From Candidatus Sumerlaeaceae bacterium (GTDB lineage Bacteria > Sumerlaeota > Sumerlaeia > Sumerlaeales > Sumerlaeaceae): a stretch of DNA of 64,000 nt. Positions 25,381 through 63,878 of this stretch are shown here, one piece after another. Below the pieces are notes generated by a model. It saw only the letters and a list, made by a program, of their open reading frames with translations. It did not search any database and was not told the origin of the DNA. The DNA is taken from assembly GCA_049968255.1 (NCBI GenBank), contig JBMFRB010000002.1, positions 153,772 through 217,771 of the forward strand, written 5' to 3'. Each line of letters opens with the position of its first letter. Within the stretch, counting starts at the first letter, position 1. Made by a program: the position numbers and the translations under genes.

Positions 25381-25395
25381 GCAAATGAGCCTTTG

Positions 25396-26217: not shown

Positions 26218-26293
26218 CTTGCGTGGATGCTCCGATTGATGCCAATCGCCTCGAACACGACACAGCGCCTTGTGTAGCAAAGTCTAGAGGATC

Positions 26294-27691
26294 ATGCGAC
26301 AAATGGCAGCCAGCATGAACATCACGAAGCACTATTACACCCCGGATCTGAGCAGATTGAAGGCTATTGCATCTGAGGCTCCACTTTTGAGTCCAGAACA
26401 AGCGCAAGAGATCCTCGACCGTTCGGAGATCCCCGCGCTTTCATTGCCTGAGGTAGCGGGCTTCGTAAAGGCAGTGCTGAGCAATCCTGTGGGCAAAGTG
26501 ACGCAACTTGTGCTCGAAAAAGCTGTCGGACTTCGTCGCGCACTGTTTAGTGATGCTGTTGTGCCGATGGCGCCGATGGAAATCGCTAACACCTGTGCTT
26601 CCGACTGCATCTTTTGTGGCTGGCGTATTTCCAACAGCGAAATGAAGCGTCTGCGCATGCCCGATGATCTTATTCTTCTTCAGGTCGAGTATCTCCTCGA
26701 CTTGGGCATAAACTACATCGAATTTGTTTCCGGTGATGATCTGGTCGCTGTGCGACAGCAGTTGCCGCGATTACTTGCGCGCACGAAAGAACTTTTTCAG
26801 GCGCGCGGCGTGGAAGGCAAAACATGCTTTTGCACCTTGGCGCTAACCGAAAAGCAATATAGTGAGCTACGCGACGGTGGCGCCGATGCGATGATTGTGT
26901 GGCAGGAAACCTATGATCCGGACGTTTTCGCGCGTTACGTCACCGATGGTCCAAAAGCTTTTGGTATCCGTGACGACTGGACGTGGGATAAAAGTGGCAA
27001 TGGCTGGTTGTTTCGTTACCAGTCGCAGGAGCGAGCCTTGCGCGCAGGCCTTGAAGTTGCCCTCGGAACGATGCTGGGTCTCAATCCTGATGTAACGTTT
27101 GAATTTCTAGCGACAGTGGATCATGCCCGGTACCTTCTCGACAATTATTCGCTTACGCCCGAACATCCGCTGATCATTGGGATGCCAATCTGGAATCCGA
27201 TTCCAACTCGCACATCAGACATGCGGAGAAGCGATTTGCCGGATATCGAGAAGCTCTTTCCGGTTTTTGCTGCCTTGTATTTGCTTAGCCTTCCCACCCC
27301 TGCAACGTGGGTTTTCCCGAACTGCCGTGTGCCTCTGACCGTGCAAGTTGAAGCGGCTCGTGTGGCAGGCGCTTTCACGTCCACCGAGGTCAAGCTCGGT
27401 CCGGGAGGTTATCTACCCTCTGTCATTCAAAAAATGGAAATGCAGGGCAAAAACACGGTCGCGTTGCGCAAGCGACTGGCGAGATTGCTTCGCGAGGCAG
27501 GTGAAAATGTGGACGAACTAGCGCGCGCACTCGATGAGCGGGAGCAGTTTGTGCACCACTACCATGCCCACGTGGCGTATCTGCGCGCGTTAGCAGACGC
27601 AGGCCTGTCCGTTGTGTCCGGGGTGCGCATCCCTGAAGTCGCTAAGAATGTATGCCAGAGCCCAGATGTGGTCGTGTGCGGCGAAGGCTAG
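26294..27691 (+). CDS. Radical SAM enzyme of the ThiH/HydG/NosL (tyrosine-lyase-like) family, orphan, with about 100-aa C-terminal extension
   Basis: ATG at 26294. CxxxCxxC in a ThiH-like context (MEIANTCASDCIFCGWRISNSEMKRLRMPDDLILLQVEYLLDLGINYIEFVSGDD) with about 90 aa ahead of the cluster, as in ThiH/HydG. The C-terminal tail has no HydG-type second cluster motif. Confidence 0.7.
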   Translation: MRQMAASMNITKHYYTPDLSRLKAIASEAPLLSPEQAQEILDRSEIPALSLPEVAGFVKAVLSNPVGKVTQLVLEKAVGLRRALFSDAVVPMAPMEIANTCASDCIFCGWRISNSEMKRLRMPDDLILLQVEYLLDLGINYIEFVSGDDLVAVRQQLPRLLARTKELFQARGVEGKTCFCTLALTEKQYSELRDGGADAMIVWQETYDPDVFARYVTDGPKAFGIRDDWTWDKSGNGWLFRYQSQERALRAGLEVALGTMLGLNPDVTFEFLATVDHARYLLDNYSLTPEHPLIIGMPIWNPIPTRTSDMRRSDLPDIEKLFPVFAALYLLSLPTPATWVFPNCRVPLTVQVEAARVAGAFTSTEVKLGPGGYLPSVIQKMEMQGKNTVALRKRLARLLREAGENVDELARALDEREQFVHHYHAHVAYLRALADAGLSVVSGVRIPEVAKNVCQSPDVVVCGEG

Positions 27692-35787: not shown

Positions 35788-35912
35788 GCGAACTATGCAC
35801 GGCGATGAACTGAGGAAGGCAAGCTGACTTTGTGCGTTTTAGGTTGAACGCAAAGCTTGGAGCCAACACTCTGGCGTTCCGAATAGCAACGATACCGGGA
35901 AAATCGAAGGAA

Positions 35913-36518
35913 ATGGCCGAACAAAAAGCGAAAAAAAGCACAGCAGGGAAGAAAGAATCGAGCCCGATTACTTTTAGTGTTTCCGACATCAAGGAGCTTT
36001 TCATCCTGATGAAGGAGAACGACATAGCCGAGCTCAACATCGAACAGGGTGAGACCAAGATTCACATTGTAGGGTCGCGCGCGTCCGCAGTGCAGGCCGC
36101 CGCAGTATCCCCTGTCGTGCCGGTCGTGTCGAGCCTTCCGCCTGTGGGCATGGTTGCGCCAGCGACGCAACCCGCAGTAGCTGCGGCGCCAGTTGCAGCC
36201 GCATCCAGTCCGTCGGATGCTGCAGGCACTATCGAAACAGCCTTGCCTACGGCCGAGTCGGAGACTCTTCCTTCAAATGTTAAAACGATCAATTCTCCGA
36301 TGGTTGGGACCTTCTATCGTGCTCCAGCCCCTGACGCACCTCCGTTTGTGGACGTTGGTGATCGCGTTAAAGAAGACACCACCTTGTGCATTATCGAAGC
36401 GATGAAACTCATGAACGAAATCAAAGCCGAAATGCGAGGGAAAGTGGTCAAAATCCTCGTCGAAAATGGCATGCCCGTCGAGTATGGTCAGCCGCTGTTC
36501 TTGATTGAACCCGAATGA
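35913..36518 (+). CDS. accB: Acetyl-CoA carboxylase biotin carboxyl carrier protein
   Basis: Start ATG 35913 (MAEQKAKKS...). Ala/Pro-rich linker and biotinyl domain with EAMKLMNEI (biotin-Lys). Confidence 0.85.
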
Positions 36519-36581
36519 CAATCGAACGCGTGCAGGACGAGCTCAGTACTCACAACAACTCAGGCGGTCAGAAGAAAACTT

Positions 36582-37925
36582 ATGTTTAGAAAGATCCTTA
36601 TAGCCAACCGTGGTGAAGTTGCTCTGCGTATCATTCGGGCATGCAAGGAGCTGGGAATACGCACCGTTGCCGTGTATTCGGAAGCCGATGCAAACTCGCT
36701 GCATGTGAAATTTGCTGACGAGGACGTATGCATTGGACCAGCCCCAAGCGCGGAAAGCTACCTAAATGTCGCGCGTATCATCAGCGCTGCTGAAATCACC
36801 GATGCCGAGGCAATTCATCCAGGTTATGGATTCTTGGCTGAGAATGCGGAGTTCGCCGAACTCTGTGAGACTTGTAAGATCAAGTTCATCGGGCCGTCAC
36901 CGGAGGCGATCCGTCGTATGGGCGACAAGGCGGAAGCCAAGAGAACAATGCGCGAAGCAGGGGTGCCATGCATTCCCGGAAGCCCTGGCTTGGTGACCGA
37001 CATTGGGGAAGCACGAGCAATTGCCGATGAAATTGGTTATCCTATTATCATAAAGGCTGCTGCTGGCGGCGGTGGTCGTGGCATGCGCGTAGCGCACACA
37101 CCCATCGCATTGTCTACTTCTTTTGCGACAGCGCAGGCCGAGGCGGAGAAAGCTTTCGGCAATCCCGGAGTTTATATCGAAAAGTTCATCGAGAACCCCA
37201 AGCACGTGGAGGTTCAGATTCTTGCTGATGAGCACGGGCATGCAGTCTATCTGGGCGAGCGTGACTGTTCGGTCCAGCGTCGCCACCAAAAGCTGATCGA
37301 AGAGAGTCCTTGCCCAGTTCTTGATGAAGAGACACGGCGCAAGATTGGAGAGGCTGCAGTCCGTGCAGCCCAGGCCGTTGGTTATGCAAATGCCGGCACG
37401 ATTGAGTTCCTCCTTGATAAGGATAAGAATTTTTATTTCATGGAAATGAACACCCGGATTCAGGTTGAGCACCCTGTCACCGAGCAGGTCACACTGTTCG
37501 ACCTTGTCCAAGCGCAGGTGCGCATCGCGGCCGGCGAAGAGCTACCAATACGTCAGGAAGACATCAAGCTTATTGGGCACTCGATCGAATGCCGCATCAA
37601 TGCAGAGAATCCGGACAAAGGGTTTATTCCCTCGCCAGGGCGAATTACGACGTATCACGTCCCAGGCGGACCAGGCGTTCGAGTGGACTCGCACTGTTAC
37701 CAGGAGTATGTAATTCCGCCCTATTATGATTCTATGATCGGAAAACTCATTACGTGGGCCCCAAGCCGCGAGGAATGTATTGCCCGTATGCGCCGCGCCT
37801 TGGACGAATTTGTCATTGAAGGTGTGGCCACAACCATTCCATTTCACCGCGCCGTCATGGACAGTGAAGAATTTTTGCGTGGGACGTTCGGCACGAACTT
37901 TGTCGAGAATTTCTGGAAAAAGTAA
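36582..37925 (+). CDS. accC: Acetyl-CoA carboxylase biotin carboxylase subunit
   Basis: 447 aa ATP-grasp biotin carboxylase ([26 protein letters not shown]..., [14 protein letters not shown]). Directly downstream of accB. Confidence 0.9.
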
Positions 37926-42283: not shown

Positions 42284-42406
42284 ACGTTTTCCATTCCTGT
42301 TCGACTAATTCCTAAGGGGGTGAGCGGAAAAACTGCGGAATTCGTTGCGTAAGAAGAGAGCCTTTTTGGTAAAGTTTTTTGCAGCGAGCTTTTTTCTGAC
42401 AAAATC

Positions 42407-43651
42407 ATGAGAGGGAAGGCGATCGTGGGAAGCCGCGAGATTCGGATGCCCAAACTCAGTGAGTCTATGACTGAGGGCAAAGTCCTCCACTGGGGGGTCA
42501 AGAAAGGGGATTTTGTTTCGCCGGGCGACGTTCTAGGCGAGGTTGAGACCGATAAAGCAAACATGGAAATCGAGGCGACGGAGCCTGGCTACATAGAAGA
42601 GATTCTTGTGCCGGTCGGAAGCGTTGTCCCTGTCGGCACGCCGCTTCTTCGCTATGCGGATAAGTTGGAGGATCTTCCGGCAGCAAGTTGCACTGAAGTT
42701 GTGCAGCTCACAGAGGATGGTGGGTCCCAACAGATCGGCAGTTGTGGTATCTCTGGAGCAGAGAGGGGAGTGACTCCGTTCGGCACCAACAATGTCTCTC
42801 CCGTCGCGGAAGAACTGGCTCGCGAGCTTGGGGTAGACCTGGCCAGCGTCAGCGGTAGCGGCCCACAGGGGCGCATCATGAAGAATGACGTGCTTCGTGC
42901 AGCGCAGCTTCACCATAATGGCAGCCACGCTTTGCTTGGCTCTGCCCAACCTCAAGCATCAATCAGTTTGCAGGAGCTTGTTGGCGACGAGCCAGCGGAA
43001 GCACTCCAATCGCCGCGACAACAGAGCAATGACCTGTCCGTGCCGCCTGCTCGTCTAGAATCTATAACTTTCTCCGGGCGGCTGCCGTTGACGCAACTGC
43101 GGGCACCCTTAGTGACAATCGTCGAGCAGATGAAGTTAACACCTCGCCTGACGTGGAGAGACCTCATTCCAGTCCTTGTTGGGCGTGCTTATGCCCTAGC
43201 TCTCCATTGTCAGGCGATTAGCGCACCAGAGAGTTTTGCGGGGGATGCTATCGCCGGATCAGTTGCAGTGAGCGTAGGAACACCGAACCGCCGCCTCTAT
43301 CCGTTGCTTCATTCAGTAGCTTCTGTTTCTCTTGCAACGCTTATTCGCGAATTTGCCGAATTGCGCGAACGTGCGTTGGCCGGACTCTTGCGGAGTGAGG
43401 AATGCCGCGGTGCACAACTTGTGGTCGAATTCCTTGGCCAGGTTGGAGGGGAACTTGCAAGCACGCAACTAGCAGAAGGATCATCGCCTTTGGTTTGCAT
43501 CGCGATGTCGTCATCCGGCCAACTTAGATTATCACTCGCGGTGAGAACGCCGCTTTACCAACTCGCGGCATGGAGTAAAGTGCATACCATGGCTGCTGCA
43601 GCGCTTCGCCACCCACTTCTTTTGGCGGATATCTTTGAACCCTGTGAATGA
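42407..43651 (+). CDS. E2-like lipoyl-domain protein (lipoyl domain + E3-binding domain + degenerate acyltransferase domain)
   Basis: Lipoyl domain with the lipoyl-lysine motif (EVETDKANMEIEA). Peripheral-subunit-binding domain (VSPVAEELARELGVDLASVSGSGPQGRIMKNDVL). The C-terminal region aligns with the 2-oxoacid dehydrogenase E2 catalytic domain, but the DHRxxDG motif reads LSLAVRTPLYQ, so the catalytic His and Asp are absent. Confidence 0.7.
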   Translation: MRGKAIVGSREIRMPKLSESMTEGKVLHWGVKKGDFVSPGDVLGEVETDKANMEIEATEPGYIEEILVPVGSVVPVGTPLLRYADKLEDLPAASCTEVVQLTEDGGSQQIGSCGISGAERGVTPFGTNNVSPVAEELARELGVDLASVSGSGPQGRIMKNDVLRAAQLHHNGSHALLGSAQPQASISLQELVGDEPAEALQSPRQQSNDLSVPPARLESITFSGRLPLTQLRAPLVTIVEQMKLTPRLTWRDLIPVLVGRAYALALHCQAISAPESFAGDAIAGSVAVSVGTPNRRLYPLLHSVASVSLATLIREFAELRERALAGLLRSEECRGAQLVVEFLGQVGGELASTQLAEGSSPLVCIAMSSSGQLRLSLAVRTPLYQLAAWSKVHTMAAAALRHPLLLADIFEPCE

Positions 43652-43658
43652 AGGCCAA

Positions 43659-44429
43659 ATGAAAACATCGCCCCATTCGAATCTTACATATGTTTTCTCG
43701 GCTGCAAGCCGCGCAGTCGGAAAGACGATTTTTTCAGATGCCAACGCAAGTGCGAGGTGGTTGGGACGCGTCGCTTACCTTCACGGGCTGGCGATCATGG
43801 AATCGCTGCTTTGTGAAAAGATGGCTAGCTTGCAAAAGGATTGGTTTCTCTATCTCGAACATGAACCAGTGATAACTTACGGCCGTACGACGCCGGCGCA
43901 TCATTTGCCCCCAACCGAGGCAAATATTCCTCGCCTCGAAGTGTCACGTGGTGGCCTTGCGACCTACCACGGGCCAGGGCAACTTGTGGGGTATGTGATT
44001 TGCGATCTGCGGCGCCGAGCGCGTGGCGCTCCGCCGGACCTTCATGAATTTCTGCGCGCCTTGGAAGAAGGAATAGCGGCCTATCTCACCGAAGAGTGGC
44101 ATTTATTCGCCGGTTCATTAGAGGGTAGGACAGGAGTCTGGATAACGAATGCCACACCGCCAAGGAAGATCGTTTCTATTGGTATTGGCGTGAGACGGTG
44201 GATTACTTATCACGGGTTCGCTATCAATGTTTTCAACGACCTGCAGATTTTCTCCCAATTCGTTCCTTGTGGGCTGGAAGGAGTGACGATGACCTCTCTT
44301 GCTGCTGAATTGCAGGTTAAGCCAGATACCAAAAAAACGCTGGATCTGAAAGCTGTCGCGACAGCTTTGCACCCATATGTCATCTCGTCTTTGCGCTTGC
44401 ATGGTTGGTGCTGGGCAGAGGTCGTGTGA
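43659..44429 (+). CDS. lipB: Octanoyltransferase (lipoyl(octanoyl) transferase)
   Basis: RGGLATYHGPGQLVGY and VPCG (catalytic Cys) motifs. ATG at 43659 lies 8 nt after the E2-like stop; the ORF-track start at 43635 is TTG. Confidence 0.85.
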   Translation: MKTSPHSNLTYVFSAASRAVGKTIFSDANASARWLGRVAYLHGLAIMESLLCEKMASLQKDWFLYLEHEPVITYGRTTPAHHLPPTEANIPRLEVSRGGLATYHGPGQLVGYVICDLRRRARGAPPDLHEFLRALEEGIAAYLTEEWHLFAGSLEGRTGVWITNATPPRKIVSIGIGVRRWITYHGFAINVFNDLQIFSQFVPCGLEGVTMTSLAAELQVKPDTKKTLDLKAVATALHPYVISSLRLHGWCWAEVV

Positions 44430-45313
44430 TGAGCACCGAAACCTCAGTATCGCGTCGCCATCCGCAATGGATTCGCGCAAAAATGCCCGGAATGGGCGAG
44501 TTTGCTTACACACAGAAGGTGCTGCGCGATTCAAATCTTCACACGGTCTGTGAAGAGGCGCAATGCCCCAACCGCAGCGAATGCTATGCACATCGCACGG
44601 CCACGTTTATGATTCTCGGAAACGTGTGCACGCGGCGTTGTGCTTTCTGTGCAGTCCCGCAAGCCATCCCGCCTGCTCCTCCAGACCCGGAAGAGCCAGC
44701 TCGCCTGGCTGAAGCTGTGACTCGACTGAATTTGCAGCATGTGGTGATTACGAGTGTGGACAGGGACGATCTTCCGGATCAGGGCGCAGAGCACTATGTG
44801 CGTTGTGTGGAAGCGGTTGCAGAACGACAACCGTCCGCGCGGATCGAGCTTCTCATACCGGATTTTCGAGGCGACGGGAACGCCCTTCACATTGTGTTGA
44901 AAGCTCCCATCCATGTTCTGGGGCACAATATCGAAACAGTTCCTCGCCTCTATCCCGTTGCGCGGCGTGGGGCACGTTATGCGCGGTCGATCCTCCTGCT
45001 CAAGCGAGCGAAAGACATGCGTCCAGATGTGTTGACAAAAACCGGCCTCATGTTAGGGCTTGGCGAAGACGAAGATGAAGTCGAGCTTGTGCTGGCTGAC
45101 CTGCGAGATGCTGACGTGGACATCGTCACGCTGGGGCAATATCTGCAACCAACGCCCCTACAGCTGCCCGTAAGCCGCTATCTGTCGCCAAAAGAGTTTG
45201 AATATTGGCGTGAGAAGGCGCTGCACATGGGATTTCGATGGGTGGAAGCCGGTCCGCTCGTTCGTAGCTCCTACCATGCGTGGGCGCACGTTGAGCACGC
45301 TCAGGTAGGATGA
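44429..45313 (+). CDS. lipA: Lipoyl synthase
   Basis: Both cluster motifs are present (CEEAQCPNRSEC and CTRRCAFCAV). ATG at 44429 overlaps the lipB stop (TGATG). Confidence 0.9.
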   Translation: MSTETSVSRRHPQWIRAKMPGMGEFAYTQKVLRDSNLHTVCEEAQCPNRSECYAHRTATFMILGNVCTRRCAFCAVPQAIPPAPPDPEEPARLAEAVTRLNLQHVVITSVDRDDLPDQGAEHYVRCVEAVAERQPSARIELLIPDFRGDGNALHIVLKAPIHVLGHNIETVPRLYPVARRGARYARSILLLKRAKDMRPDVLTKTGLMLGLGEDEDEVELVLADLRDADVDIVTLGQYLQPTPLQLPVSRYLSPKEFEYWREKALHMGFRWVEAGPLVRSSYHAWAHVEHAQVG

Positions 45314-55178: not shown

Positions 55179-56597
55179 TCACGGACGTCGCGCCAATTCG
55201 CTGTCTTTTTTTGAGCCCACCACTGCCAGGCTCACCGACGCCAGAACCGCTTGCTGGGGTGGATAGTCAGCGAGTGTGGTTCGAGACAGGTAGGTGATAT
55301 TTGTTGTGGGAATTGCCCCAGACTCATTGCGAATGAGCTTGAGTTCCGCTTTACCTGGCCTTAGCGCTCGCAAGTGAATGCGGGCCAGTGTCCCCGTTGC
55401 TCGCAGCGGCTGCAACTCGCAGCCTTCTTCGTAGATAATTACGCCTCGTTCGTTGTCGGCTCTGTTCCACTTGTGAAAATCGAAAGCGAACTCTTGGTGC
55501 GCAAACCCATCCTCGATGTTGATGCCACTGCGTATCCAATTTCCTTTGTCGAAATCCGTTACTTCAACCACGTCTGGATCGAACTGAAGATAGAGTTGCA
55601 CATGATCAAAGGGATCTGCATAGGGGTTGTTCAGGATCACATCTACTGTCACTTCCTCACCTGGTTCGACAGTGTTGGCATGAGGGAGAAGGCGAAGGTG
55701 CATCGAGGGCATTGGGTTTTCGACTTGCGCGCTCGCGACGAGTAGCCCACCTCCGCTGACCTGCTCCACGATGTTTTTGTTAGCTCGTGGGCGAATGAGC
55801 ACATTTGCGTGAATCACGCCGTCACCGCGAGACGTGGCCGTGCCTAAAACGCTTGTGTTCTTCAAGCGGACGTCACAGTAATCGTTGTCGAAATCGAACC
55901 GTATCTGTGCGGGATCTGCTGGAGCCAAAGCTTCCCAATAAAGCAGGGCAATGGCACGCTGGGGAAACTTTTGCGGCTCCTGCAGTCTGATGTGAAAAGC
56001 CATCACGCCGTCCCCTGATTCAAAAGCATACTCCACATCGTCTTGCAAGTAGGTAGCAATCGGCGCGAAATCCACAGCGAGAAGATTGAGAGACTGAGGC
56101 GGAAAGGTAATCCGTACGAAAAATTCGTCCGCTATTCCGTCTTTTGTATCGGCTGCCAACTCGGTGACAAAGGTATCGCCAGGTTTGACCACGCTGTCAA
56201 AAGGCCGAAAGAATAAAATGCTTCGCGCTTCGCTTCGTGCGGCAGTTGGGCCAGCTGGCGAGGGAGCAGGCGTTGGTCGGGCGCCTTGCTGGGGGGGCAC
56301 GTACACCCGCACCGGTCCCTGAGGCGGTGGCGCACTGCCAGGCACGCCGCCGCCCGACTGGGGCGTGGGCTGCGGAGTCTGTTGCTGCTGGCGAGCTTCA
56401 GCAGCCTTTCGTGCCTCTTCTTCCTGTCGCCTTTTGTTCTCCTGAATGATTTGCTCAATGCGTCGTTGGTGGGCTTTGATGCGCTCCTCGCGGCTCATGG
56501 CGCGGATTTGATCCAACGAGGGCGTTGGTTCTTGAGCAAGAATGGGGCTGTAGCACACGACCACTAACGCAAATATTGACAAGAGTCTCGTTCTCAT
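55179..56597 (-). CDS. Secreted hypothetical protein with coiled-coil and Pro/Gln-rich linker
   Basis: Real start taken as ATG 56597 (MRTRLLSIFALVVVCYSPILA = signal peptide). Then a charged coiled-coil (EERIKAHQRRIEQIIQENKRRQEEEARKAAEARQQQQ), a Pro-rich low-complexity linker and a C-terminal domain of about 300 aa of unknown family. The ORF-track extension to 57095 overlaps the methyltransferase gene and is rejected. Confidence 0.5.
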   Translation of the reverse strand: MRTRLLSIFALVVVCYSPILAQEPTPSLDQIRAMSREERIKAHQRRIEQIIQENKRRQEEEARKAAEARQQQQTPQPTPQSGGGVPGSAPPPQGPVRVYVPPQQGARPTPAPSPAGPTAARSEARSILFFRPFDSVVKPGDTFVTELAADTKDGIADEFFVRITFPPQSLNLLAVDFAPIATYLQDDVEYAFESGDGVMAFHIRLQEPQKFPQRAIALLYWEALAPADPAQIRFDFDNDYCDVRLKNTSVLGTATSRGDGVIHANVLIRPRANKNIVEQVSGGGLLVASAQVENPMPSMHLRLLPHANTVEPGEEVTVDVILNNPYADPFDHVQLYLQFDPDVVEVTDFDKGNWIRSGINIEDGFAHQEFAFDFHKWNRADNERGVIIYEEGCELQPLRATGTLARIHLRALRPGKAELKLIRNESGAIPTTNITYLSRTTLADYPPQQAVLASVSLAVVGSKKDSELARRP

Positions 56598-56802
56598 TGC
56601 CTTGACCAGCTTTCGCGATGTGTAGCAGCATAGGCAAGAACAATGCCACAGCGTCGTGCAGGCCATCGGATGCGTAGGCCCAGGCCCAGAAGGGGGGCGA
56701 ATTGCGCCTGGGCTGCAAGAGGCAATCCGAAAGCGTTGTGAGCGCGGTTTGATATTTCCGACGGAGAGAAGGGACATCGTGCAGCCAGAAGAATACTCTC
56801 GG

Positions 56803-57516
56803 ATGTTCAGCGTGGAAGATACGTTTTGGTGGTATCGAGGACTCCGTGCTCTTTTGAAGGAAACTCTCATAGATCTCTCCAAAAAAAAGAGCGAGCACCG
56901 ATTGCAAGTTATCGATGCGGGGTGTGGGACCGGCGCCAATATCAGCGAGTGCAGAATGCTCATCGAGGGCTTGGGAATCGATCTCGCGTGGGAAGCTCTG
57001 GTTTTGGCCCGCAAGCGTGGCCTCCAACATCTCGTCCGTGGGCGCATACAGGAACTTCCCGTACGCGATGCCAGTTGCGATGTTCTCATGAGCATTGATG
57101 TGCTTTATCACCGCTGGATTGAGAATGATCTTCAGGTTTTGCGGGAGTATTTTCGTGTGCTGGTGCCGGGCGGGTGGTTAATTATTCATGTTGCTGCTCA
57201 TGAGTGGTTGCGGGGAAGCCATGACGAGGTGGTCATGACGCGACATCGTTACTCGCGATCCGAGCTGGTAGAAAAAGTTTCTGCAGCTGGGTTTCGTGTG
57301 AGGCGGGCAACTTATCGCAACACCCTTCTTCTCCCCTTGATGCTGCTGCGGCGCCTTATAACTGCGAACACCCCTGTGCCCGTATCGGATTTGCGGGTTC
57401 CTCCACGATGGCTCAATGAGACTCTTTACTGGGTTTTATGGGTCGAAAATGCATTGCTTCGTGTCGCAGATTTTCCTACAGGGGGATCGCTCTTTGTCCT
57501 CGCACAGCGGCCGTAG
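56803..57516 (+). CDS. Class I SAM-dependent methyltransferase
   Basis: Start ATG 56803 (MFSVEDTFWWYRGLRAL...). SAM-binding motif I (VIDAGCGTGANI) and post-I/II motifs (DVLMSIDVLYH, LVPGGWLII). Confidence 0.7.
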   Translation: MFSVEDTFWWYRGLRALLKETLIDLSKKKSEHRLQVIDAGCGTGANISECRMLIEGLGIDLAWEALVLARKRGLQHLVRGRIQELPVRDASCDVLMSIDVLYHRWIENDLQVLREYFRVLVPGGWLIIHVAAHEWLRGSHDEVVMTRHRYSRSELVEKVSAAGFRVRRATYRNTLLLPLMLLRRLITANTPVPVSDLRVPPRWLNETLYWVLWVENALLRVADFPTGGSLFVLAQRP

Positions 57517-59342: not shown

Positions 59343-61133
59343 ATGTTCAAACCTGAGAATCCTATTATTGTGCAAAGCGACATGACGGTGCTTCTTGAAA
59401 CAACGGGGCCGTTGTTCGAGGATGGACGTGATTTTCTCGGACAGTTTGCTGAGCTAGAAAAAAGCCCGGAATACCTTCACACCTACAGAATCACGCCGCT
59501 TTCGTTGTGGAATGCCGCGGCCGCTGGGCTGAAGGCGGAAGCGATCGTTAGCCGCTTGGTGGGGCTGGCCAAGTATGCAGTGCCGCAGAATGTTCTCACA
59601 GAAATTCGCGAGCAGATGGCACGCTTCGGCAAGCTACGCCTGGTCAGAGATGACGCCACAGGAGAGCTACAACTGGTCTGCGATGACCGCGCTGCGCTTG
59701 AAGAAATCTGTGCTTCACCGCGGGTGAGCGAGTTTTTGATCGAGCGACGCGACGATCGAACACTGATCATCAATCCGGCTTACCGCGGCCGAGCAAAGCA
59801 GGTTCTCATCAAACTCGGCTATCCCGTCGCAGACCTGGCCGGATTCACAGAGGGGGATCCCCTCACTTTTGAGATTCGAGCAGTGACCCGCCTTGGGCTC
59901 CGGTTCAATCTTAGAGAATATCAGCGCGATGCCGTTGAGACCTTCTGGGCAGGAGGTTCCCGGGCAGGTGGAGCTGGTGTGCTTGTTCTGCCCTGCGGGG
60001 CAGGCAAGACAATCATTGGAATTGGCTGCATGGAGAAAGTTCAGCAACACACGTTGATTCTCACCACGAATATCACAGCGCTTCGACAGTGGATGCGAGA
60101 ACTTCTCGACAAGACCACCTTGACGGAGGATCAGGTTGCCGAGTATAGTGGGGACAAAAAGGATATTCGGCCTGTGACGGTGACTACTTACCAGATGATG
60201 ACTTATAAGCCGAGCAAGTCCGACCACTTTCCCCACATGGACCTTATCAAGCAGCATAATTGGGGGCTGATCATTTACGATGAGGTTCACCTGCTTCCGG
60301 CTCCAGTTTTTCGTGCGACGGCAGAAATTCAAGCGCGCCGCCGGCTGGGATTGACCGCGACACTGGTGCGTGAGGACGGGCGCGAGGACGACGTCTTCTC
60401 GCTGATCGGCCCGAAGCGTTTCGACAAGCCGTGGAAGGAGCTCGAACAACAAGGATGGATCGCCAAGGCGCGTTGCATGGAAATTCGCGTTCCTATGCAG
60501 CCAGAAAAGCGTATCGAGTATGCGCGGGCCGAGCTTCGCTCCAAGTATCGTCTCGCTATGGAGAATCCCGACAAAATTCCCGTGCTTCTCAGGCTGCTCG
60601 ATCTGCATCGCGATGATAACATCCTTATCATTGGCCAATACCTTGATCAGTTGCAGGAGATCAGTAAGCTGACCGGCGCACCCATTATCACGGGTGAAAC
60701 GCCGAATACCCAACGCGAGGAGCTTTATGCAGCGTTCAAGTCTGGGCAAATCAAGGTGCTCGTTGTCTCAAAGGTCGCGAACTTTGCGGTGGATTTGCCT
60801 GATGCCAACGTGGCGATCCAAGTGAGTGGTACATTCCGTTCACGTCAGGAAGAGGCCCAACGCGTTGGTCGCGTGCTGCGCCCAAAACCGGGCCAGAATT
60901 ACGCGTACTTTTACTCGATTGTGACCAAGGACACGAAAGACCAGGAGTGTGCCAAGCAGCGGTCTTTGTTCCTGACCGAGCAAGGGTATCGCTATCGGAT
61001 TAAGATCGTGGATCTCTCCAAATTGGATGGCGAGACTTTTGACTTCGATATGGCCGACGAACTCGTCGGCGTGGAAGTTGCTGCTGACACGCAAGTTGAG
61101 GATGAAGCCCTTCTGGAAGCCCAGGATTTGTGA
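59343..61133 (+). CDS. XPB/ERCC3/Ssl2-type SF2 DNA repair helicase (bacterial XPB homologue)
   Basis: 596 aa. The helicase core matches the XPB family motif-for-motif: LREYQRDAVETFW...GVLVLPCGAGKT (Walker A), IYDEVHLLPA (DEVH), LGLTATLVREDGRED, LIGPK, GWIAKARC, QEAQRVGRVLRPK, FYSIVTKDTKDQE and KQRSLFLTEQGYRYRI. An N-terminal XPB-specific domain of about 190 aa lies ahead of the core. Confidence 0.85.
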   Translation: MFKPENPIIVQSDMTVLLETTGPLFEDGRDFLGQFAELEKSPEYLHTYRITPLSLWNAAAAGLKAEAIVSRLVGLAKYAVPQNVLTEIREQMARFGKLRLVRDDATGELQLVCDDRAALEEICASPRVSEFLIERRDDRTLIINPAYRGRAKQVLIKLGYPVADLAGFTEGDPLTFEIRAVTRLGLRFNLREYQRDAVETFWAGGSRAGGAGVLVLPCGAGKTIIGIGCMEKVQQHTLILTTNITALRQWMRELLDKTTLTEDQVAEYSGDKKDIRPVTVTTYQMMTYKPSKSDHFPHMDLIKQHNWGLIIYDEVHLLPAPVFRATAEIQARRRLGLTATLVREDGREDDVFSLIGPKRFDKPWKELEQQGWIAKARCMEIRVPMQPEKRIEYARAELRSKYRLAMENPDKIPVLLRLLDLHRDDNILIIGQYLDQLQEISKLTGAPIITGETPNTQREELYAAFKSGQIKVLVVSKVANFAVDLPDANVAIQVSGTFRSRQEEAQRVGRVLRPKPGQNYAYFYSIVTKDTKDQECAKQRSLFLTEQGYRYRIKIVDLSKLDGETFDFDMADELVGVEVAADTQVEDEALLEAQDL

Positions 61134-61136
61134 GCC

Positions 61137-63878
61137 ATGAAACTCCGAACGATTCTTCAAAAGCTACCGCTCGAGCAGCTCCTTCAGATCGCTGAATTCT
61201 GGCAATTTCAAATTCCAGAAAGTGTGCAGCCGCTCGGCGAAGGCGGTCAGGCGCGGTTGGTTGAGTACCTTTATCCGCGCATGCAGACGGCAAAATATTT
61301 TTTTCGGACAATGGAGCGCTTGGCTCCACGCCAGCGGAATGCTTTGAAATTTCTTGCCGTGCATGGAGGTGAGCTTCCTGCCCGCGAAGTCATCGAGCGC
61401 TGTTTTGGAGGCGACATCGCAGGAGGGGAGAACGATCTCCGCGAGTTGGCCGCCAAAGGTTTTATTTATTTGGATGTTTCTGAGCCGGCGCATCCGTACG
61501 TCGTACTTCCGGAGAGCGTACGTTACATTTTCGAGCTTGGGACACAGCTCACAGGGTATTTGGGTGCGCTTCTCCAGCGAATGGCCTTCAACGATTTAGC
61601 GGCGCTTGCGGAAAAGGTCACGGGCGACAAGAGCTTCTGGAACATCCAGCGCGAGAAGGTGATCCGCCGTCTGCGAGAGTACTTGTTAAATCCGGAAAAC
61701 CTTCGGCGCCACATTGAGTCCCTTCCTGTGGACGAGCGGTTGCTTTTCCATGCACTTGTGGAGCGGGATGGCTATGGCTTTTACGGTGACTTATTGGAGG
61801 TAGGTGGCCGTCGGCGCTTCGATCTCAGTCGCACCCAGCAACTCAACTCGTTGCTCACGAGAAGGGGAATCGTTTTTCAGGTGTCAGACGGTGCGAATAA
61901 GTACGCCAACCTCCTCATGGTCCCGCGCGATGTTCTCTATATTGTGACGCATGATTATGCGCCAGACGTTCGGCCTTTAGAAGAGCTTGAGCGAATTGGT
62001 GGGGGCAAAGATGAATTCCGCCCCGCAATGGTTGTGGACAACTCGCTAGTCGTATTTAGAGACCTGGTCGTTTTGGGGAGTTCCATTCATGCGCAAAATT
62101 TCAAAGTTCTTGCAACGGGCGGACTTAGCCGCGCTGAGCTGCGGCGGCTTGTGCCTCTCCTCGGCCCAAGCCGGAGTCTAAAATACGCCACCTTCCTTGC
62201 CGCTTTTCTCATCTGGGCAAAGTATCTGCGACCAGTGGGGGAGTACTGGCGTCTTTCAGATTCGTTTTCCGATACGCTTGCGAATCCTGGCCGCTTGTTT
62301 GCGGAGCTTTTCCATTGGTGGCTCGACGTAAATCATTGGAACGAAGCGCATCCTGATGGGCTGCTCTGGGAGGAAGAGGAGCCAACACGAGGTTTCGTCG
62401 CGCTTATTGAGATGCGGCGGGAAGTGGTGCAAGCAATCTTTGCCGCTAACACTGCCGGAGCTTGGATTCCGTATGCTTCTTTCGAGGAGATTGTTTTACC
62501 CAAAATGGTGGCCGTAGCCTTCCCCGACGGTAAGGCTGACGCGTCGATGCGCGGTCAATTGCGCCGCATTCTTTACTCAATCGTCACGGAGCCGTTGACG
62601 TGGCTTGGATTGCTGTCACTCGGCGCAGCGGCAAAGACTGTGTTTTCCCCCGACAGTCCGATAGACATCGACGCTTTATCGCAGAAGAAAAATTTAAAAA
62701 AAACCGGGGTTCCTGCTCTTAAGTTCTCATTCCGTCCCACGGATTTGGCACGCGGCATGTTTGAGACTGGTGCGATTCAACCGTGCGAAGTGTTCCGCGA
62801 CGTTGCGCCAAACACCTTTCCGCTCTCCTTCTCTGCGGAGTGGCTGATTGTGCAGCCCAACTGCGAGATTGTGGCGCCACCGGACTTGCGGCTATCGAAC
62901 CTTTTGAGCCTTTGCGGGTTTTGTGAGGTCCGCAGCATTGACGTGATGACCTCGCTCGCCGTGACCCGCGAAAGTCTGCAGCGAGCCCTTGACCTGGGGG
63001 TTCGGGGACAAGATGTCCGCGATTTGCTGACGCGTTTGAGCCGCTCAGGGCTGCCGGAGACCGTTGATCAATTGATCACCGACTGCCTAGAAAGGCACGG
63101 GGAAGCATTTCTTGGCAGCGCAGGCGGTTACGTTGTGACTGAGGACGAAGGTGTCATTGAGCAAATCCGCTCGAACAAAGAGTTCGAAGACATTATCAAA
63201 GACGTGGTGGGGAAGAGCACACTGATCTTGGCACCGGGGGCAAATCTGGAGCGATTTGCCCGCCAGTTGCGTGGCCTAGGGCTTATGCCCCGAGTCGAGA
63301 CAGGTACTGTCGAGACTACGCGCGACCAGCGGTTCCACCTCAACCTTTCGGCCGAGGAATACTATGAGCTTCTCGCTTTGCTACGTCTTGTCGAAATTAT
63401 CGAAGAAGAGCTCGACGCCGAAATCGTGGATGATCGGGGACGTTCGCTTATTGACCATATCGAGCCCGATAGCGCCGGTTTTGCACTTATCCATGAAGAG
63501 GCGCAAAAGGTAGCCCTCCGGTATTCACGAAAAGTGCGTTCAGCACTGCTGCGGATGCGGTCGGAAATTGAGGAGAAGTATAAGACGCAGGTATCGAGAA
63601 TTGTAGCTAAAGCTCGTGGTCAACGAGGGGCAACGCGTTTTCAATTCCGCGGTGCCAATCCCGCTGTGGAGAGAAACGATATTGTTCAACTGCTGAAATT
63701 TGCCCTCGAACATGAACTCGAAACAGAGATCCATTACGTGAAGCGCAATGAAGCGGAAACTACACTCCGCATTTACCCAAAGAGCTTTGAGGGCAACCGG
63801 CTTTACGCTTACTGTGTGGAATCCGATCGAGAGGCCATTTACTCGGTGGACCGCATCCTGAAAGCCGCTCTCATCTAA
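61137..63878 (+). CDS. XPB-associated large protein: winged-helix-like N-terminal repeats, an internal domain paralogous to the XPB N-terminal domain, and a WYL-like C-terminal domain
   Basis: 913 aa. ATG starts 3 nt after the XPB stop. Residues around 610-720 (SLQRALDLGVRGQDVRDLLTRLSRSGLPETVDQLITDCLERHGEAFLG...STLILAPGANLERFARQLRGLGLMP) align with the XPB N-terminal segment (SLWNAAAAGLKAEAIVSRLVGLAKYAVPQNVLTEIREQMARFGKLRL...RTLIINPAYRGRAKQVLIKLGYPV). The C-terminus (EIHYVKRNEAETTLRIYPKSFEGNRLYAYCVESDREAIYSVDRI) fits the WYL-domain pattern R.V.P...WYL.A.C....R.FRLDRI. Confidence 0.6.
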   Translation: MKLRTILQKLPLEQLLQIAEFWQFQIPESVQPLGEGGQARLVEYLYPRMQTAKYFFRTMERLAPRQRNALKFLAVHGGELPAREVIERCFGGDIAGGENDLRELAAKGFIYLDVSEPAHPYVVLPESVRYIFELGTQLTGYLGALLQRMAFNDLAALAEKVTGDKSFWNIQREKVIRRLREYLLNPENLRRHIESLPVDERLLFHALVERDGYGFYGDLLEVGGRRRFDLSRTQQLNSLLTRRGIVFQVSDGANKYANLLMVPRDVLYIVTHDYAPDVRPLEELERIGGGKDEFRPAMVVDNSLVVFRDLVVLGSSIHAQNFKVLATGGLSRAELRRLVPLLGPSRSLKYATFLAAFLIWAKYLRPVGEYWRLSDSFSDTLANPGRLFAELFHWWLDVNHWNEAHPDGLLWEEEEPTRGFVALIEMRREVVQAIFAANTAGAWIPYASFEEIVLPKMVAVAFPDGKADASMRGQLRRILYSIVTEPLTWLGLLSLGAAAKTVFSPDSPIDIDALSQKKNLKKTGVPALKFSFRPTDLARGMFETGAIQPCEVFRDVAPNTFPLSFSAEWLIVQPNCEIVAPPDLRLSNLLSLCGFCEVRSIDVMTSLAVTRESLQRALDLGVRGQDVRDLLTRLSRSGLPETVDQLITDCLERHGEAFLGSAGGYVVTEDEGVIEQIRSNKEFEDIIKDVVGKSTLILAPGANLERFARQLRGLGLMPRVETGTVETTRDQRFHLNLSAEEYYELLALLRLVEIIEEELDAEIVDDRGRSLIDHIEPDSAGFALIHEEAQKVALRYSRKVRSALLRMRSEIEEKYKTQVSRIVAKARGQRGATRFQFRGANPAVERNDIVQLLKFALEHELETEIHYVKRNEAETTLRIYPKSFEGNRLYAYCVESDREAIYSVDRILKAALI

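Follow-up and report, generated by a model that had tools for sequence, protein, structure and literature searches.

A non-catalytic E2-like lipoyl protein encoded with lipB and lipA in Sumerlaeota, tentatively read as an E3BP-like lipoyl-arm scaffold

Actinobacterial OdhA/Kgd has an E2o catalytic domain without lipoyl domains and borrows those of E2p. In this system, as at the locus described here, E2 catalytic and lipoyl-bearing functions are split onto different polypeptides, but the two are mirror images: OdhA is catalysis without an arm, and the protein described here, pseudo-E2, is an arm without catalysis. Eukaryotic E3BP (PDHX, protein X) is an E2 paralogue of the pyruvate dehydrogenase complex with an inactive core domain, and its domain order (lipoyl domain, peripheral-subunit-binding domain [PSBD] and inactive acetyltransferase-homologous core; PMC10156792) is also that of pseudo-E2. 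In M. tuberculosis, lipB is transcribed together with the gene of an E2-type lipoyl protein (dlaT-Rv2216-lipB), and Lpd-DlaT-AhpD-AhpC constitutes a peroxynitrite reductase in which the DlaT arm has an antioxidant role with Lpd (PMC7064933). Dedicated lipoyl carriers have been described as the GcvH relay, as S. aureus GcvH-L with LplA2, and as LbpA of the sHdr system (PMC6067878, PMC10332631). Like DlaT, pseudo-E2 is an E2-type lipoyl protein in one operon with lipB. However, DlaT is a fully active E2p with DHRxxDG, whereas the catalytic residues of pseudo-E2 are gone, and the Sumerlaeaceae unit also includes lipA.

The window, the whole 64-kb stretch of DNA that was analysed, comes from a Candidatus Sumerlaeaceae MAG. 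Positions 42407-45313 hold three tightly packed genes, pseudo-E2 followed by lipB and lipA, as three same-strand ORFs (42407-43651, 43635/43659-44429 and 44405/44429-45313). The features are as follows.

42284..42406, no strand: intergenic region separating the divergently oriented murJ (minus strand) and E2-like gene, from the ORF map and sequence
42407..43651, + strand: pseudo-E2, 414 aa, with lipoyl domain, PSBD and dead E2-core
42434..42676, + strand: lipoyl domain, residues 10-90 (Biotin_lipoyl match; pLDDT 92-97)
42554-42556, + strand: lipoyl-lysine K50, in ETDKA
42788..42922, + strand: peripheral-subunit-binding (E3/E1-binding) domain, residues 128-172 (E3_binding match; pLDDT >89)
43049..43633, + strand: dead E2-core (CAT-fold) domain, residues 215-409 (HHalign, 1EAA alignment, MAFFT, AF2, Foldseek)
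43659..44429, + strand: lipB, octanoyl-[ACP]:protein octanoyltransferase, from ATG 43659; longest ORF from TTG 43635
44429..45313, + strand: lipA, lipoyl synthase, from ATG 44429; longest ORF from TTG 44405

Alternative starts for pseudo-E2 are ATG 42446 and GTG 42425, the latter being the NCBI choice for the 408-aa P0001, which is 100% identical to pseudo-E2 and is named 'biotin/lipoyl-containing protein [Candidatus Sumerlaeaceae bacterium]'. The TGA stop of pseudo-E2 (43649-43651) is separated from the next ATG at 43659 by a 7-nt spacer (aggccaa), so that the 8-nt figure given in the first-pass annotation was essentially right; a GAAGG-like ribosome-binding site precedes lipB at this junction. 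The lipB stop overlaps the lipA start as TGATG (44427-44431), as had been noted. The identities first given to both genes also stand. LipB matched TIGR00214 at 128 bits (cut-off 83.6) and Pfam LplA-B_cat at 109.6 bits, and its Lys ('RKIVSIG') and Cys ('VPCGL') lie opposite the catalytic Lys142 and Cys176 of M. tuberculosis LipB (1W66). LipA matched TIGR00510 at 395.6 bits (cut-off 310), with Radical_SAM and LIAS_N domains, and both Cys motifs, CEEAQCPNRSEC and CTRRCAFC, are present in the translation. Both lipB and lipA are intact. The intergenic region at 42284..42406 is presumed to be the site of the operon promoter; it contained neither a sigma-70 consensus match nor an Rfam family, and the operon itself had no internal sigma-70 promoter match.

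Pfam placed Biotin_lipoyl at residues 11-81 of pseudo-E2 (74.8 bits; ETDKA is residues 47-51) and E3_binding at residues 130-163 (51.5 bits), in agreement with the lipoyl and subunit-binding domains first assigned to this gene, and gave no significant match to GCV_H. The 2-oxoacid_dh match at residues 286-353 scored 21.4 bits, under the gathering score of 23. However, when nine family members were compared with 23 real E2s by HHalign, 386 columns reaching the C-terminus were aligned (probability 100%, E = 6.7e-48), which bears out the earlier view that this region still aligns with the E2 catalytic domain. AF2 runs on the core with a mixed MSA and a family-only MSA gave pLDDT ~80-95 (80-93 for the family-only run). 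The best Foldseek matches of the core model were E2 cores (1EAA: TMt 0.63, rmsd 3.8 A), and the family-only-MSA model matched E2 cores and the human E3BP model 6h60. An E2 core fold is thus predicted with confidence for this domain of pseudo-E2, and the C-terminal 'PLLLA' knob motif is still present. In the clade of the window, a deletion of ~13 residues lies ahead of the former catalytic strand and a C-terminal extension of 8-10 residues runs beyond the knob; either could alter or abolish higher-order assembly.

In the profile-profile alignment the DHRxxDG motif stays absent. HHalign placed DHR opposite R380-T381-P382 (43544-43552), which equals the 'RTPLYQ' read earlier, and the catalytic Ser opposite E341 (43427-43429). 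Phmmer against A. vinelandii E2p (1EAA) also placed Ser558 opposite E341. MAFFT moved the first motif by one residue (V379-R380), and neither alignment puts a His or Asp at these positions. The first-pass annotation had allowed that a frameshift or sequencing error might hide the motif; no rescuing frameshift was found, and independent assemblies agree. The catalytic His is absent from all of ~20 orthologues from independent assemblies, and DHR is missing in 12 syntenic E2-like proteins (alignment A3) and in seven further subfamily-B proteins. The former active-site region holds C333 (43403-43405), which is invariant in the family, with a CxxC in four of nine members, and an acidic residue is conserved at the former Ser position. 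These alignments indicate that pseudo-E2 is a genuine pseudo-acyltransferase, as first proposed, with the catalytic His/Asp and Ser lost.

All three folded domains are under purifying selection and the dead core is not decaying. For the closest pair, L061 and L004, dN/dS was 0.15 in the lipoyl domain, 0.20 in the PSBD and 0.17 in the core, as compared to 0.62 in linker 1, with linker 2 also low (0.16). Among nine orthologues, 31 of 81 lipoyl-domain columns are invariant (mean identity 66%); the PSBD has 13 invariant columns among orthologues (mean identity 53%), and the core keeps 33% identity while the linkers are randomised (13-19%). Intact ORFs are found in ~20 lineages at 28-51% identity, with an invariant lipoyl-lysine motif and conserved replacement residues E341 and C333. 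The core matched only nine cluster representatives at E<=1e-3 among 1.84 billion proteins.

The synteny first noted in this stretch is conserved across divergent Sumerlaeota. The order murJ / pseudo-E2 / lipB / lipA is kept at 33-51% identity, with conserved synteny in at least seven divergent lineages, and the divergent arrangement of murJ and an E2-like gene occurs in L001-L005, L036, L038, L046, L053, L057 and L061-L063. The occupants of the slot vary. Sister lineages have pseudo-E2 and pseudo-E3 with lipB-lipA, and L010 (SSF23) has an E2-like gene beside a pseudo-E3. In L046, L053 and L057, a lipoyl protein and a mini-E3 flavoprotein are followed by bshA, a bacillithiol biosynthesis gene (TIGR03999, 480 bits), and in L055 a bare 88-aa lipoyl domain lies directly before lipB-lipA. 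No lipB-lipA adjoins the homologous gene at four Sumerlaeota loci (L046, L053, L057 and L010). Across these loci E1 is gone and E2 is dead; E3 is dead in sister lineages, survives elsewhere as a mini flavoprotein, and is lost in this window. L053, L055 and L057 lack both the PSBD and the core, and no element other than the lipoyl arm is conserved in every lineage.

Intact lipA-pdhA-pdhB-E2-lpd-lipB operons are present in Gemmatimonadota (L014, L018, L028 and L052). These share the E2-E3-lipB order with Sumerlaeaceae L036 and L038, as well as a common lipoyl motif, 'DKANMEIE'. However, their E1ab, E2 (SCDHRVIDG, SNLG) and E3 (GGTCLNWGCIP, HAHPT) are all intact, whereas the Sumerlaeota loci have no E1 gene and their E2 and E3 are dead, reduced or missing. 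The Gemmatimonadota arrangement is likely the ancestral operon type, and the pseudo-E2-lipB-lipA unit looks like a trimmed PDH-lip operon. Pseudo-E2 is non-catalytic, descends from a PDH-type E2 and is specific to the Sumerlaeota lineage. Because Gemmatimonadota have intact operons and M. tuberculosis has dlaT-Rv2216-lipB (PMC7064933), the link to lipB and lipA seems to be an inheritance and not an adaptation to a carrier role.

The non-overlapping ORFs of at least 320 aa in the window were all assigned, by Pfam scan or by the Pfam annotation of the syntenic L001 locus. None of them is an E1, E2 or E3 (two ORFs had no Pfam family), and none of these genes was found in a further 6.7 kb to the right, which extends the earlier remark that E1 and E3 genes are not nearby. 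The presence of real E2, E1 and E3 genes was taken from KO and COG counts in a published table (PMC8092238; Fang et al. 2021, Data Set S1e), where four Sumerlaeaceae genomes have one aceE, two K00627, one or two lpd and one gcvH, and two separate COG0508 clusters are present. Pseudo-E2 is probably an extra copy beside real PDH genes, one of the outcomes considered in the first-pass annotation.

Our preferred, still tentative, reading is that pseudo-E2 is a selected non-catalytic lipoyl carrier/scaffold from a PDH-lip operon, acting as an E3BP-like lipoyl-arm scaffold. Pseudo-E2, lipB and lipA would be co-expressed, K50 would be octanoylated by LipB, and LipA would insert two sulfurs. The dead core may self-assemble into trimers or larger particles via the retained C-terminal 'PLLL' knob, and the binding domain would tether a flavoprotein, here the organism's real dihydrolipoyl dehydrogenase (Lpd) and in sister lineages the co-encoded pseudo-E3. 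Through these steps pseudo-E2 would become a lipoyl-arm scaffold unable to make acyl-CoA, its arm limited either to dithiol/disulfide cycling by Lpd or to visiting, in trans, active sites in other complexes (those of AceE/AceF and of the glycine cleavage system). In the sister lineages, a pseudo-E3 on the PSBD would compete with the real Lpd, which makes simple redox cycling by Lpd less likely there. Inactive E3-binding proteins are so far known from eukaryotes, and pseudo-E2 may be their bacterial counterpart. In contrast to E3BP, its origin is independent and bacterial, its nearest sequence relatives are bacterial PDH E2s (25-31% identity), and it is encoded with lipB-lipA rather than PDH genes. 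In addition, an E3BP function is incompatible with the complete loss of PSBD and core in some Sumerlaeota lineages. Where both are lost (L053, L055 and L057), only the arm remains, and the function conserved there cannot be that of an adaptor or scaffold; as the one element kept in every lineage, the arm is therefore the functional core.

The first-pass annotation had proposed a dedicated lipoyl-assembly carrier or relay hub, which we consider unlikely. Pseudo-E2 would be octanoylated preferentially by LipB and sulfurated by LipA, and the cofactor would either stay on it or be transferred to GcvH and the real E2 through an amidotransferase. Precedents for such a relay are LipM-GcvH-LipL of B. 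subtilis and eukaryotic LIPT2-GCSH-LIPT1. As in the dedicated carriers, an extra lipoyl-bearing protein is encoded beside its cofactor-building enzymes; however, those have a GcvH fold and pseudo-E2 an E2-type lipoyl domain, together with a PSBD and dead E2 core, and no amidotransferase, ligase or sHdr genes are nearby. The tight, conserved operon coupling, the invariance of the lipoyl domain across all forms, and the position of the L055 domain, which fits the arm itself being what matters, agree with the original idea, as does a COG0095 (LplA/LipL-like) cluster in 4 of 16 Sumerlaeota genomes (PMC8092238 supplement). However, E2 is linked with lipB (and lipA) also where it is fully active, in Gemmatimonadota and M. 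tuberculosis, so a carrier role does not follow from linkage alone. The lipoyl protein is retained without adjoining lipB-lipA in L046, L053 and L057. Bacterial LipB-type enzymes use E2 and GcvH domains as direct substrates, and these genomes have GcvH. A pure LipB/LipA substrate needs no PSBD or oligomerising core, yet both are under purifying selection, and no amidotransferase is encoded in the window. An obligate GcvH-like relay is speculation.

A thiol-redox shuttle is likewise improbable. Lipoylated pseudo-E2, reduced by NADH via PSBD-docked Lpd, would feed electrons to an acceptor that depends on thiols, for instance a peroxidase of the AhpD/AhpC type or a low-molecular-weight thiol system, for which an acyltransferase site is unnecessary. 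The retention of lipoyl domain and PSBD while catalysis was lost, the invariant C333, the CxxC of some members and the conserved acidic residue, and bshA directly after the lipoyl protein and mini-flavoprotein in three lineages are consistent with this role. The documented dual role of DlaT (PMC7064933) provides a parallel, in that its arm also serves a non-acyltransferase function with Lpd, and an AhpD-type cluster is listed in five Sumerlaeota genomes (PMC8092238 supplement). However, the bshA adjacency is seen only in lineages without the core domain, and neither the window nor the conserved surroundings of window-type loci contain a peroxiredoxin, AhpD or thiol-system gene.

It is very doubtful that the gene is an evolutionary relic without protein-level function, its ORF kept for a lipB-lipA promoter or translational coupling. 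The progressive reduction of the locus across lineages, from E2 plus E3 to pseudo-E2 to the lipoyl domain alone, and the lack of a sigma-70 match inside the operon would suit a relic, but the low dN/dS of the folded domains, the intact ORFs in ~20 lineages and the conserved lipoyl-lysine motif, E341 and C333 argue against it. An active E2 with alternative catalytic residues, as the organism's only E2, is scarcely credible: the protein keeps the overall fold of an E2 and its order of domains, and NCBI annotates the sister-lineage orthologue P0250 as '2-oxo acid dehydrogenase subunit E2', but the core domain of nine orthologues has no invariant His, Asp or Ser anywhere, both catalytic positions are replaced in all members, the hairpin ahead of the catalytic strand has been lost, there is no E1 gene nearby, and the published table has a second E2 KO match plus aceE (PMC8092238).

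Data Set S1e lists the lpd row three times; in one of these, HGW-BRC1-1 (L036), which has a pseudo-E3, has lpd=2, the sole such count among the four Sumerlaeaceae genomes (PMC8092238). This count would fit, though weakly, a genome with one real Lpd in addition to the pseudo-E3.

Three open reading frames on the plus strand span window positions 42407-45313 in this Candidatus Sumerlaeaceae bacterium (phylum Sumerlaeota, formerly BRC1).

Features of the operon (window positions)
42407-43651, plus strand: gene 1, encoding the E2-like protein (stop codon at 43649-43651)
43403-43405, plus strand: codon of Cys333 of gene 1
43427-43429, plus strand: codon of Glu341 of gene 1, at the former catalytic serine position
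43659, plus strand: ATG start codon of gene 2, lipB, after a 7-nt spacer (aggccaa)
44427-44431, plus strand: TGATG overlap of the lipB stop codon and the start codon of gene 3, lipA

The close spacing of gene 1 and lipB and the lipB/lipA overlap, both described in the first-pass annotation, were seen in the junction sequence. The octanoyltransferase and lipoyl synthase identities that it assigned to genes 2 and 3 were borne out by curated equivalog scores and catalytic residues together. Gene 2 scored 128 bits against TIGR00214 (cut-off 83.6), and in alignment with M. tuberculosis LipB (1W66) its lysine ('RKIVSIG') and cysteine ('VPCGL') take the positions of the catalytic dyad. Gene 3 scored 396 bits against TIGR00510 (cut-off 310), and both cysteine motifs, CX4CX5C and CX3CX2C, are present in its translation. 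By these measures the two genes are predicted to encode bona fide LipB and LipA. Upstream of gene 1, murJ is divergently oriented across an intergenic region of 123 bp. Searches around the operon returned no match to a sigma-70 consensus or to an Rfam family and no convincing terminator; two weak terminator-like hairpins within lipA fell below chance expectation. No E1, E3 or second E2 is encoded elsewhere in the 64-kb window, and no E1 or E3 was found in the next 6.7 kb, in agreement with the earlier observation, or in the syntenic loci of the nine orthologues of the window type (the window clade). The accB-accC pair lies about 4 kb upstream, at 35832-37925. The BCCP encoded by accB (228 aa, with a long extension at its N-terminus) also has the Biotin_lipoyl fold and is the second such protein near the operon, but it carries biotin and is not a lipoyl protein.

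Gene 1 encodes a protein of 414 aa. Its identity to a 408-aa NCBI MAG protein ('biotin/lipoyl-containing protein [Candidatus Sumerlaeaceae bacterium]') is given as 100%, while by eye there is one N/D difference; GCA_049699935.1 carries a second protein of the window. The lipoyl domain and peripheral-subunit-binding domain (PSBD) read earlier from the sequence were both recovered with Pfam. Biotin_lipoyl matches residues 11-81 with 74.8 bits, and the lipoyl-lysine is K50 within ETDKA (residues 47-51), of which the DKA motif is invariant among orthologues. E3_binding matches residues 130-163 with 51.5 bits (cut-off 23.7). The lipoylation site and the partner-binding domain are thereby predicted to be intact. 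There was no Pfam match to GCV_H in the window protein, and its lipoyl domain is of the E2 type. The C-terminal region reached 21.4 bits for 2-oxoacid_dh, short of the gathering score of 23 and with a match limited to residues 286-353, and the NCBIfam E2 equivalogs matched through the N-terminal part only, all far below their cut-offs.

Profile-profile alignment was used to place the C-terminal region among real E2s. HHalign of nine family members against 23 real E2s gave a probability of 100% and E = 6.7e-48 over 386 columns reaching the C-terminus. The real-E2 consensus 'TlScDHR-vDG' aligns with 'SLAVRTPLYQL', so that D, H and R stand opposite R380, T381 and P382, the placement that the first-pass annotation had proposed when it read DHRxxDG as RTPLYQ. 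Similarly, 'TISNLG' aligns with 'VVEFLG', which puts the catalytic serine on E341; Ser558 of A. vinelandii E2p (1EAA) also stands opposite E341. MAFFT placed the DHR motif one residue away, at V379-R380-T381, and neither version contains a His or Asp. Histidine is absent from the DHR position in all of about 20 syntenic homologues, the former serine position is Glu in 8/9 members of the window clade and Asp in 1/9, and none of the positions of the core domain that are invariant in the nine orthologues is a His, Asp or Ser. The residues that are invariant are A261, A265, A287, Y298, R320, L324, G326, L328, C333, P361, L400 and L405, with a CxxC at C333 in 4/9. The conserved replacement residues C333 and E341 suggest, from the alignments, that a new site has arisen and that the old one was not simply lost. 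The window clade further differs from real E2s by a deletion of about 13 residues covering the hairpin that precedes the former catalytic strand, by an insertion of about 12 residues near the start of the core domain, and by a tail of 8-10 residues beyond the conserved C-terminal 'PLLLA' motif.

A frameshift or sequencing error hiding DHRxxDG was rejected, because the two other frames hold no E2-like motif and the loss recurs in about 20 independently assembled homologues. Frame 0 of gene 1 does contain a stray 'DHR', but outside any E2 context. The catalytic His and Asp are thus lost, and neither profile alignment nor inspection of the frames brings the motif back. An AlphaFold2 model of the core made with a mixed MSA had a pLDDT of about 90, and an MSA of the nine family members alone gave the same fold at pLDDT 80-93, so that a predominance of real E2s in the MSA can be rejected as the source of the predicted fold. 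Foldseek matched both models to E2 catalytic cores with TMt values of 0.6-0.7 (for 1EAA, TMt 0.63 and rmsd 3.8 A over 209 columns), and the human E3BP core model 6h60 was also among the matches. On five counts, namely HHalign, the other alignments, the lack of any invariant catalytic residue, the lack of a hidden frame and the predicted fold, the C-terminal domain of gene 1 is a dead E2 core. A protein with this predicted core cannot be an acyltransferase.

Selection on the individual domains was assessed by Nei-Gojobori dN/dS for the closest orthologue pair only (L061 vs L004), which gave 0.15 for the lipoyl domain, 0.20 for the PSBD, 0.17 for the dead core and 0.62 for linker 1. Mean pairwise identity among the nine orthologues was 66% in the lipoyl domain, 53% in the PSBD, 33% in the core and 13-19% in the linkers. 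The dead core, lipoyl domain and PSBD are clearly under purifying selection and are not decaying; these ratios and the conserved ORFs rule out a decaying pseudogene.

The family is small. A word-indexed protein search with the pseudo-E2 returned five close homologues, none of which (0/5) has a precomputed PF00198 match, and below them a gap followed by ordinary E2s at 25-30% identity, mostly Bacteroidota PDH E2s. With the core domain alone as query, exhaustive HMMER searching of 1.84 billion cluster representatives gave nine proteins at E<=1e-3, of which eight were pseudo-E2s and one was a marginal real E2; no pseudo-E2 outside Sumerlaeota was found in this way. The family amounts to a few clusters, all from Sumerlaeota, and its nearest relatives are bacterial PDH E2s and one eukaryotic E2 that keeps 2-oxoacid_dh (P0006). 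Every member with readable context shares the neighbourhood accB-accC, EF-G(-), murJ(-) / pseudo-E2, lipB, lipA, PMT-like, nusB(-), amidase_3(-), and the synteny of pseudo-E2, lipB and lipA, which the first-pass annotation had suggested looking for in related lineages, was present at every readable window-clade locus. The contig CAVVFB010000002.1 (L045), labelled 'uncultured Bacteroidetes bacterium', carries a Sumerlaeota-type murJ / E2-like / E3-like / lipB / lipA order with a murJ 47% identical to that of the window and with E3-like and lipA genes split over different frames; the bin probably belongs to Sumerlaeota, is mislabelled and contains indel errors from long reads.

Variant forms of the locus downstream of murJ in other Sumerlaeota were recovered by a genome scan followed by tblastn, ORF and Pfam analysis, and are given here with intact operons from elsewhere.

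Variant and intact operons (locus handle: positions)
L038:11377-12801, L036:11620-13044 and L010:11336-12790: E3-like gene, a full-length dihydrolipoyl-dehydrogenase homologue, after the E2-like gene and, in L036 and L038, before lipB
L046:9797-12119, L053:5865-7880 and L057:3002-5015: lipoyl protein, mini-E3 and bshA, downstream of murJ
L055:9995-11882: asd, an 88-aa stand-alone E2-type lipoyl domain, lipB and lipA, in a Sumerlaeota MAG (LacPavin)
L014:6956-13906 and L018:45-4376, also L028 and L052: intact lipA-pdhA-pdhB-pdhC-lpd-lipB

HGW-BRC1-1 (L036) and SKW162 (L038) have E2-like, E3-like, lipB and lipA genes, and SSF23 (L010) has the E2-like and E3-like genes only. These three E2-like proteins retain more of the E2 core, with Pfam 2-oxoacid_dh scores of up to 55 bits, and all are without the catalytic His (FDPGC, SAQDG, ALSRS), as are seven further proteins of the same sister-lineage group (subfamily B). 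In the E3-like protein, GGTCLNVGCIPSK of a solved dihydrolipoyl dehydrogenase is replaced by GGAYLHETTIPAR; neither redox cysteine remains, and a conserved His-Glu stands in their place. Over the family, GGTCLNVGCIP becomes GGA-x-(L/V)HE-xx-(L/I)P. The histidine of HAHPT is lost and the FAD GxGxxG is kept, while the NAD GxGxxG is degenerate in L010, as read from the alignment, and apparently retained in L036 and L038. The E3-like protein is, by these motifs, predicted to be a pseudoenzyme too. Only four clusters of this pseudo-E3 family occur in a set of 5.8 billion proteins, followed by an E-value gap of about 60 orders of magnitude to real Lpds.

In the case of L046, L053 and L057, the lipoyl protein is short (121-209 aa), with a PSBD in L046, and the mini-E3 (150-197 aa) is essentially the FAD-binding part only. 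It is directly followed by bshA, a bacillithiol glycosyltransferase gene (TIGR03999, 480 bits), and no lipB-lipA adjoins these lipoyl genes. L055 shows the window's operon in its smallest form. Only one element is present and intact in all the forms, namely the lipoyl domain with its DKA lysine.

Among the loci from outside Sumerlaeota that the same scan returned, the order lipA-pdhA-pdhB-E2-lpd-lipB occurs in three Gemmatimonadota genomes and one unclassified MAG. In the two fully read loci (L014 and L018), the E2 motifs SCDHRVIDG and SNLG and the E3 motif GGTCLNWGCIP are intact; HAHPT was confirmed in L018, and the L014 lpd ORF ends before the motif. Loci of this type are PDH complexes bracketed by their own cofactor-assembly genes. 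M. tuberculosis has a dlaT-Rv2216-lipB operon (PMC7064933), so that operons with lipB or lipA next to an E2 are an established type. The Gemmatimonadota type is likely the ancestral arrangement for the Sumerlaeota locus, and a parsimonious history is that E1 was lost from such an operon, after which E2 and E3 died catalytically and were trimmed in a lineage-specific manner.

Whether gene 1 is an extra copy, as previously suggested, was considered from published gene tables. Four Sumerlaeaceae genomes are listed with aceE=1, K00627=2, lpd=1-2, gcvH=1 and por=1 (PMC8092238, Data Set S1e). HGW-BRC1-1, the pseudo-E3 carrier, is the sole one of the four with lpd=2, in one of three S1e lpd-row listings, and COG0508 forms two separate clusters, each found in 7/16 genomes (PMC8092238). 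A COG0095 (LplA/LipL-like) cluster is listed for 4/16 Sumerlaeota genomes in the same study. These KO and COG tables favour the pseudo-E2 as a surplus copy in genomes that also encode a real PDH of the AceE type, an Lpd and glycine cleavage. No catalytically intact Sumerlaeota E2 was among the matches of the genome-contig scan and of protein searches with the pseudo-E2, the pseudo-E3 and the L010 E2-like protein.

The gene 1 protein was compared with three known families. It shares with catalytic E2s the lipoyl domain with DKA lysine, the PSBD and the homology and predicted fold of the core, but it lacks the His-Asp of DHRxxDG and the Ser/Thr of the (S/T)xLG strand; since these are the two defining catalytic features, it falls outside that family enzymatically. 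Catalytic E2s are also encoded with a cognate E1 and usually an E3, whereas the pseudo-E2 has neither at its locus. GcvH-type carriers (GcvH, GcvH-L, LbpA) are likewise co-encoded with lipoate attachment or synthesis enzymes, as lipB and lipA directly downstream are here; however, they have the glycine-cleavage H-protein fold, and an amidotransferase or ligase moves the cofactor onward, for which no candidate gene is present in the window. With its E2-type domain, the predicted protein is not a GcvH-type carrier. By the criteria of PMC10156792, E3BP/PDHX has a lipoyl domain, a PSBD and an inactive, acetyltransferase-homologous core-binding domain in that order, which the pseudo-E2 also has. 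The PSBD of E3BP is E3-specific and recruits E3; that of the pseudo-E2 is recognised from sequence and may bind E3 or another partner. E3BP sits in or on an active E2 core, and for the Sumerlaeaceae such an E2 is indicated by the KO and COG counts of PMC8092238. The nearest relatives of the pseudo-E2 are bacterial PDH E2s, not the E3BP of animals and fungi. Eukaryotic E3BP appears to be the closest known system, functionally and architecturally, with the pseudo-E2 being of independent descent.

An E3-docking or auxiliary-arm role is the composite explanation that we rank first, tentatively and at somewhat less than even odds. The gene 1 protein would be translated together with LipB and LipA, which would lipoylate it; it would oligomerise through its dead core; and its PSBD would tether a flavoprotein, which may be the real Lpd in the window organism and the pseudo-E3 in subfamily B. 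Taken together, these properties would make it an E3BP-like lipoyl-arm scaffold.

The first-pass annotation had instead proposed a dedicated carrier or relay for lipoyl assembly, and the bare lipoyl domain with lipB and lipA at L055 fits that idea. The linkage of E2 to lip genes appears, however, to be inherited and is broken in some lineages, and selection on the PSBD and core would be left unexplained, so that we regard a dedicated carrier as unlikely. The invariant Cys333 and the bshA neighbourhood of other lineages hint at a thiol-redox shuttle driven by Lpd and comparable to DlaT-AhpD, which we regard as similarly unlikely. Known lipoate-dependent systems are the 2-oxoacid dehydrogenases, glycine cleavage and sHdr. 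We consider it a speculative and rather improbable reading that the locus encodes a 'ghost' 2-oxoacid dehydrogenase sub-complex, with a dead E2 and, in sister lineages, a His-Glu dead E3, whose lipoyl arm has been recruited outside these systems. Such a sub-complex might be a platform on which LipB and LipA build lipoate for distribution from there, or it might run a lipoyl-dependent thiol relay by means of Cys333 and Glu341, which lie in what was the acyltransferase channel. A functionless relic is very improbable for domains under purifying selection, and a cryptically active E2, in a protein with neither His nor Asp in its DHR position, is scarcely credible.

To our knowledge, dead E2 paralogues that keep a lipoyl arm and an E3-binding domain are textbook material for eukaryotic PDH (E3BP) only, and no precedent for a bacterial pseudo-E2, pseudo-E3 or stand-alone E2-type lipoyl protein was found in the literature searched in full text. 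The pseudo-E2 is a real, selected and unusual family with a natural deletion series, confined to an uncultured phylum. It represents an independent bacterial case, joined operonically to the de novo lipoate pathway, with variants stripped stepwise to a bare lipoyl domain. The series is a ready comparative experiment on what a lipoyl arm does without its enzyme, and on the decay or re-use of multienzyme complexes.

The SKW162 pseudo-E2 is publicly annotated as '2-oxo acid dehydrogenase subunit E2' (homologues P0250, P0127). The KO tables appear to count the pseudo-E2 as K00627 and the pseudo-E3 as lpd K00382 (PMC8092238, Data Set S1e). If so, the PDH gene complements of Sumerlaeota in metabolic reconstructions are inflated, and reconstructions of uncultured phyla can, through automatic annotation, credit a genome with a PDH complex that it does not encode.

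Elsewhere in the window, two long minus-strand ORFs, 55179-57095 (638 aa) and 25031-26407 (458 aa), had no Pfam family at E<=1e-5; the latter overlaps other ORFs and may be no gene. At 59343-63878, an XPB/ERCC3-type helicase (596 aa) is directly followed by a 913-aa protein with Helicase_C_3 as its only Pfam match, and the two look like a conserved pair.
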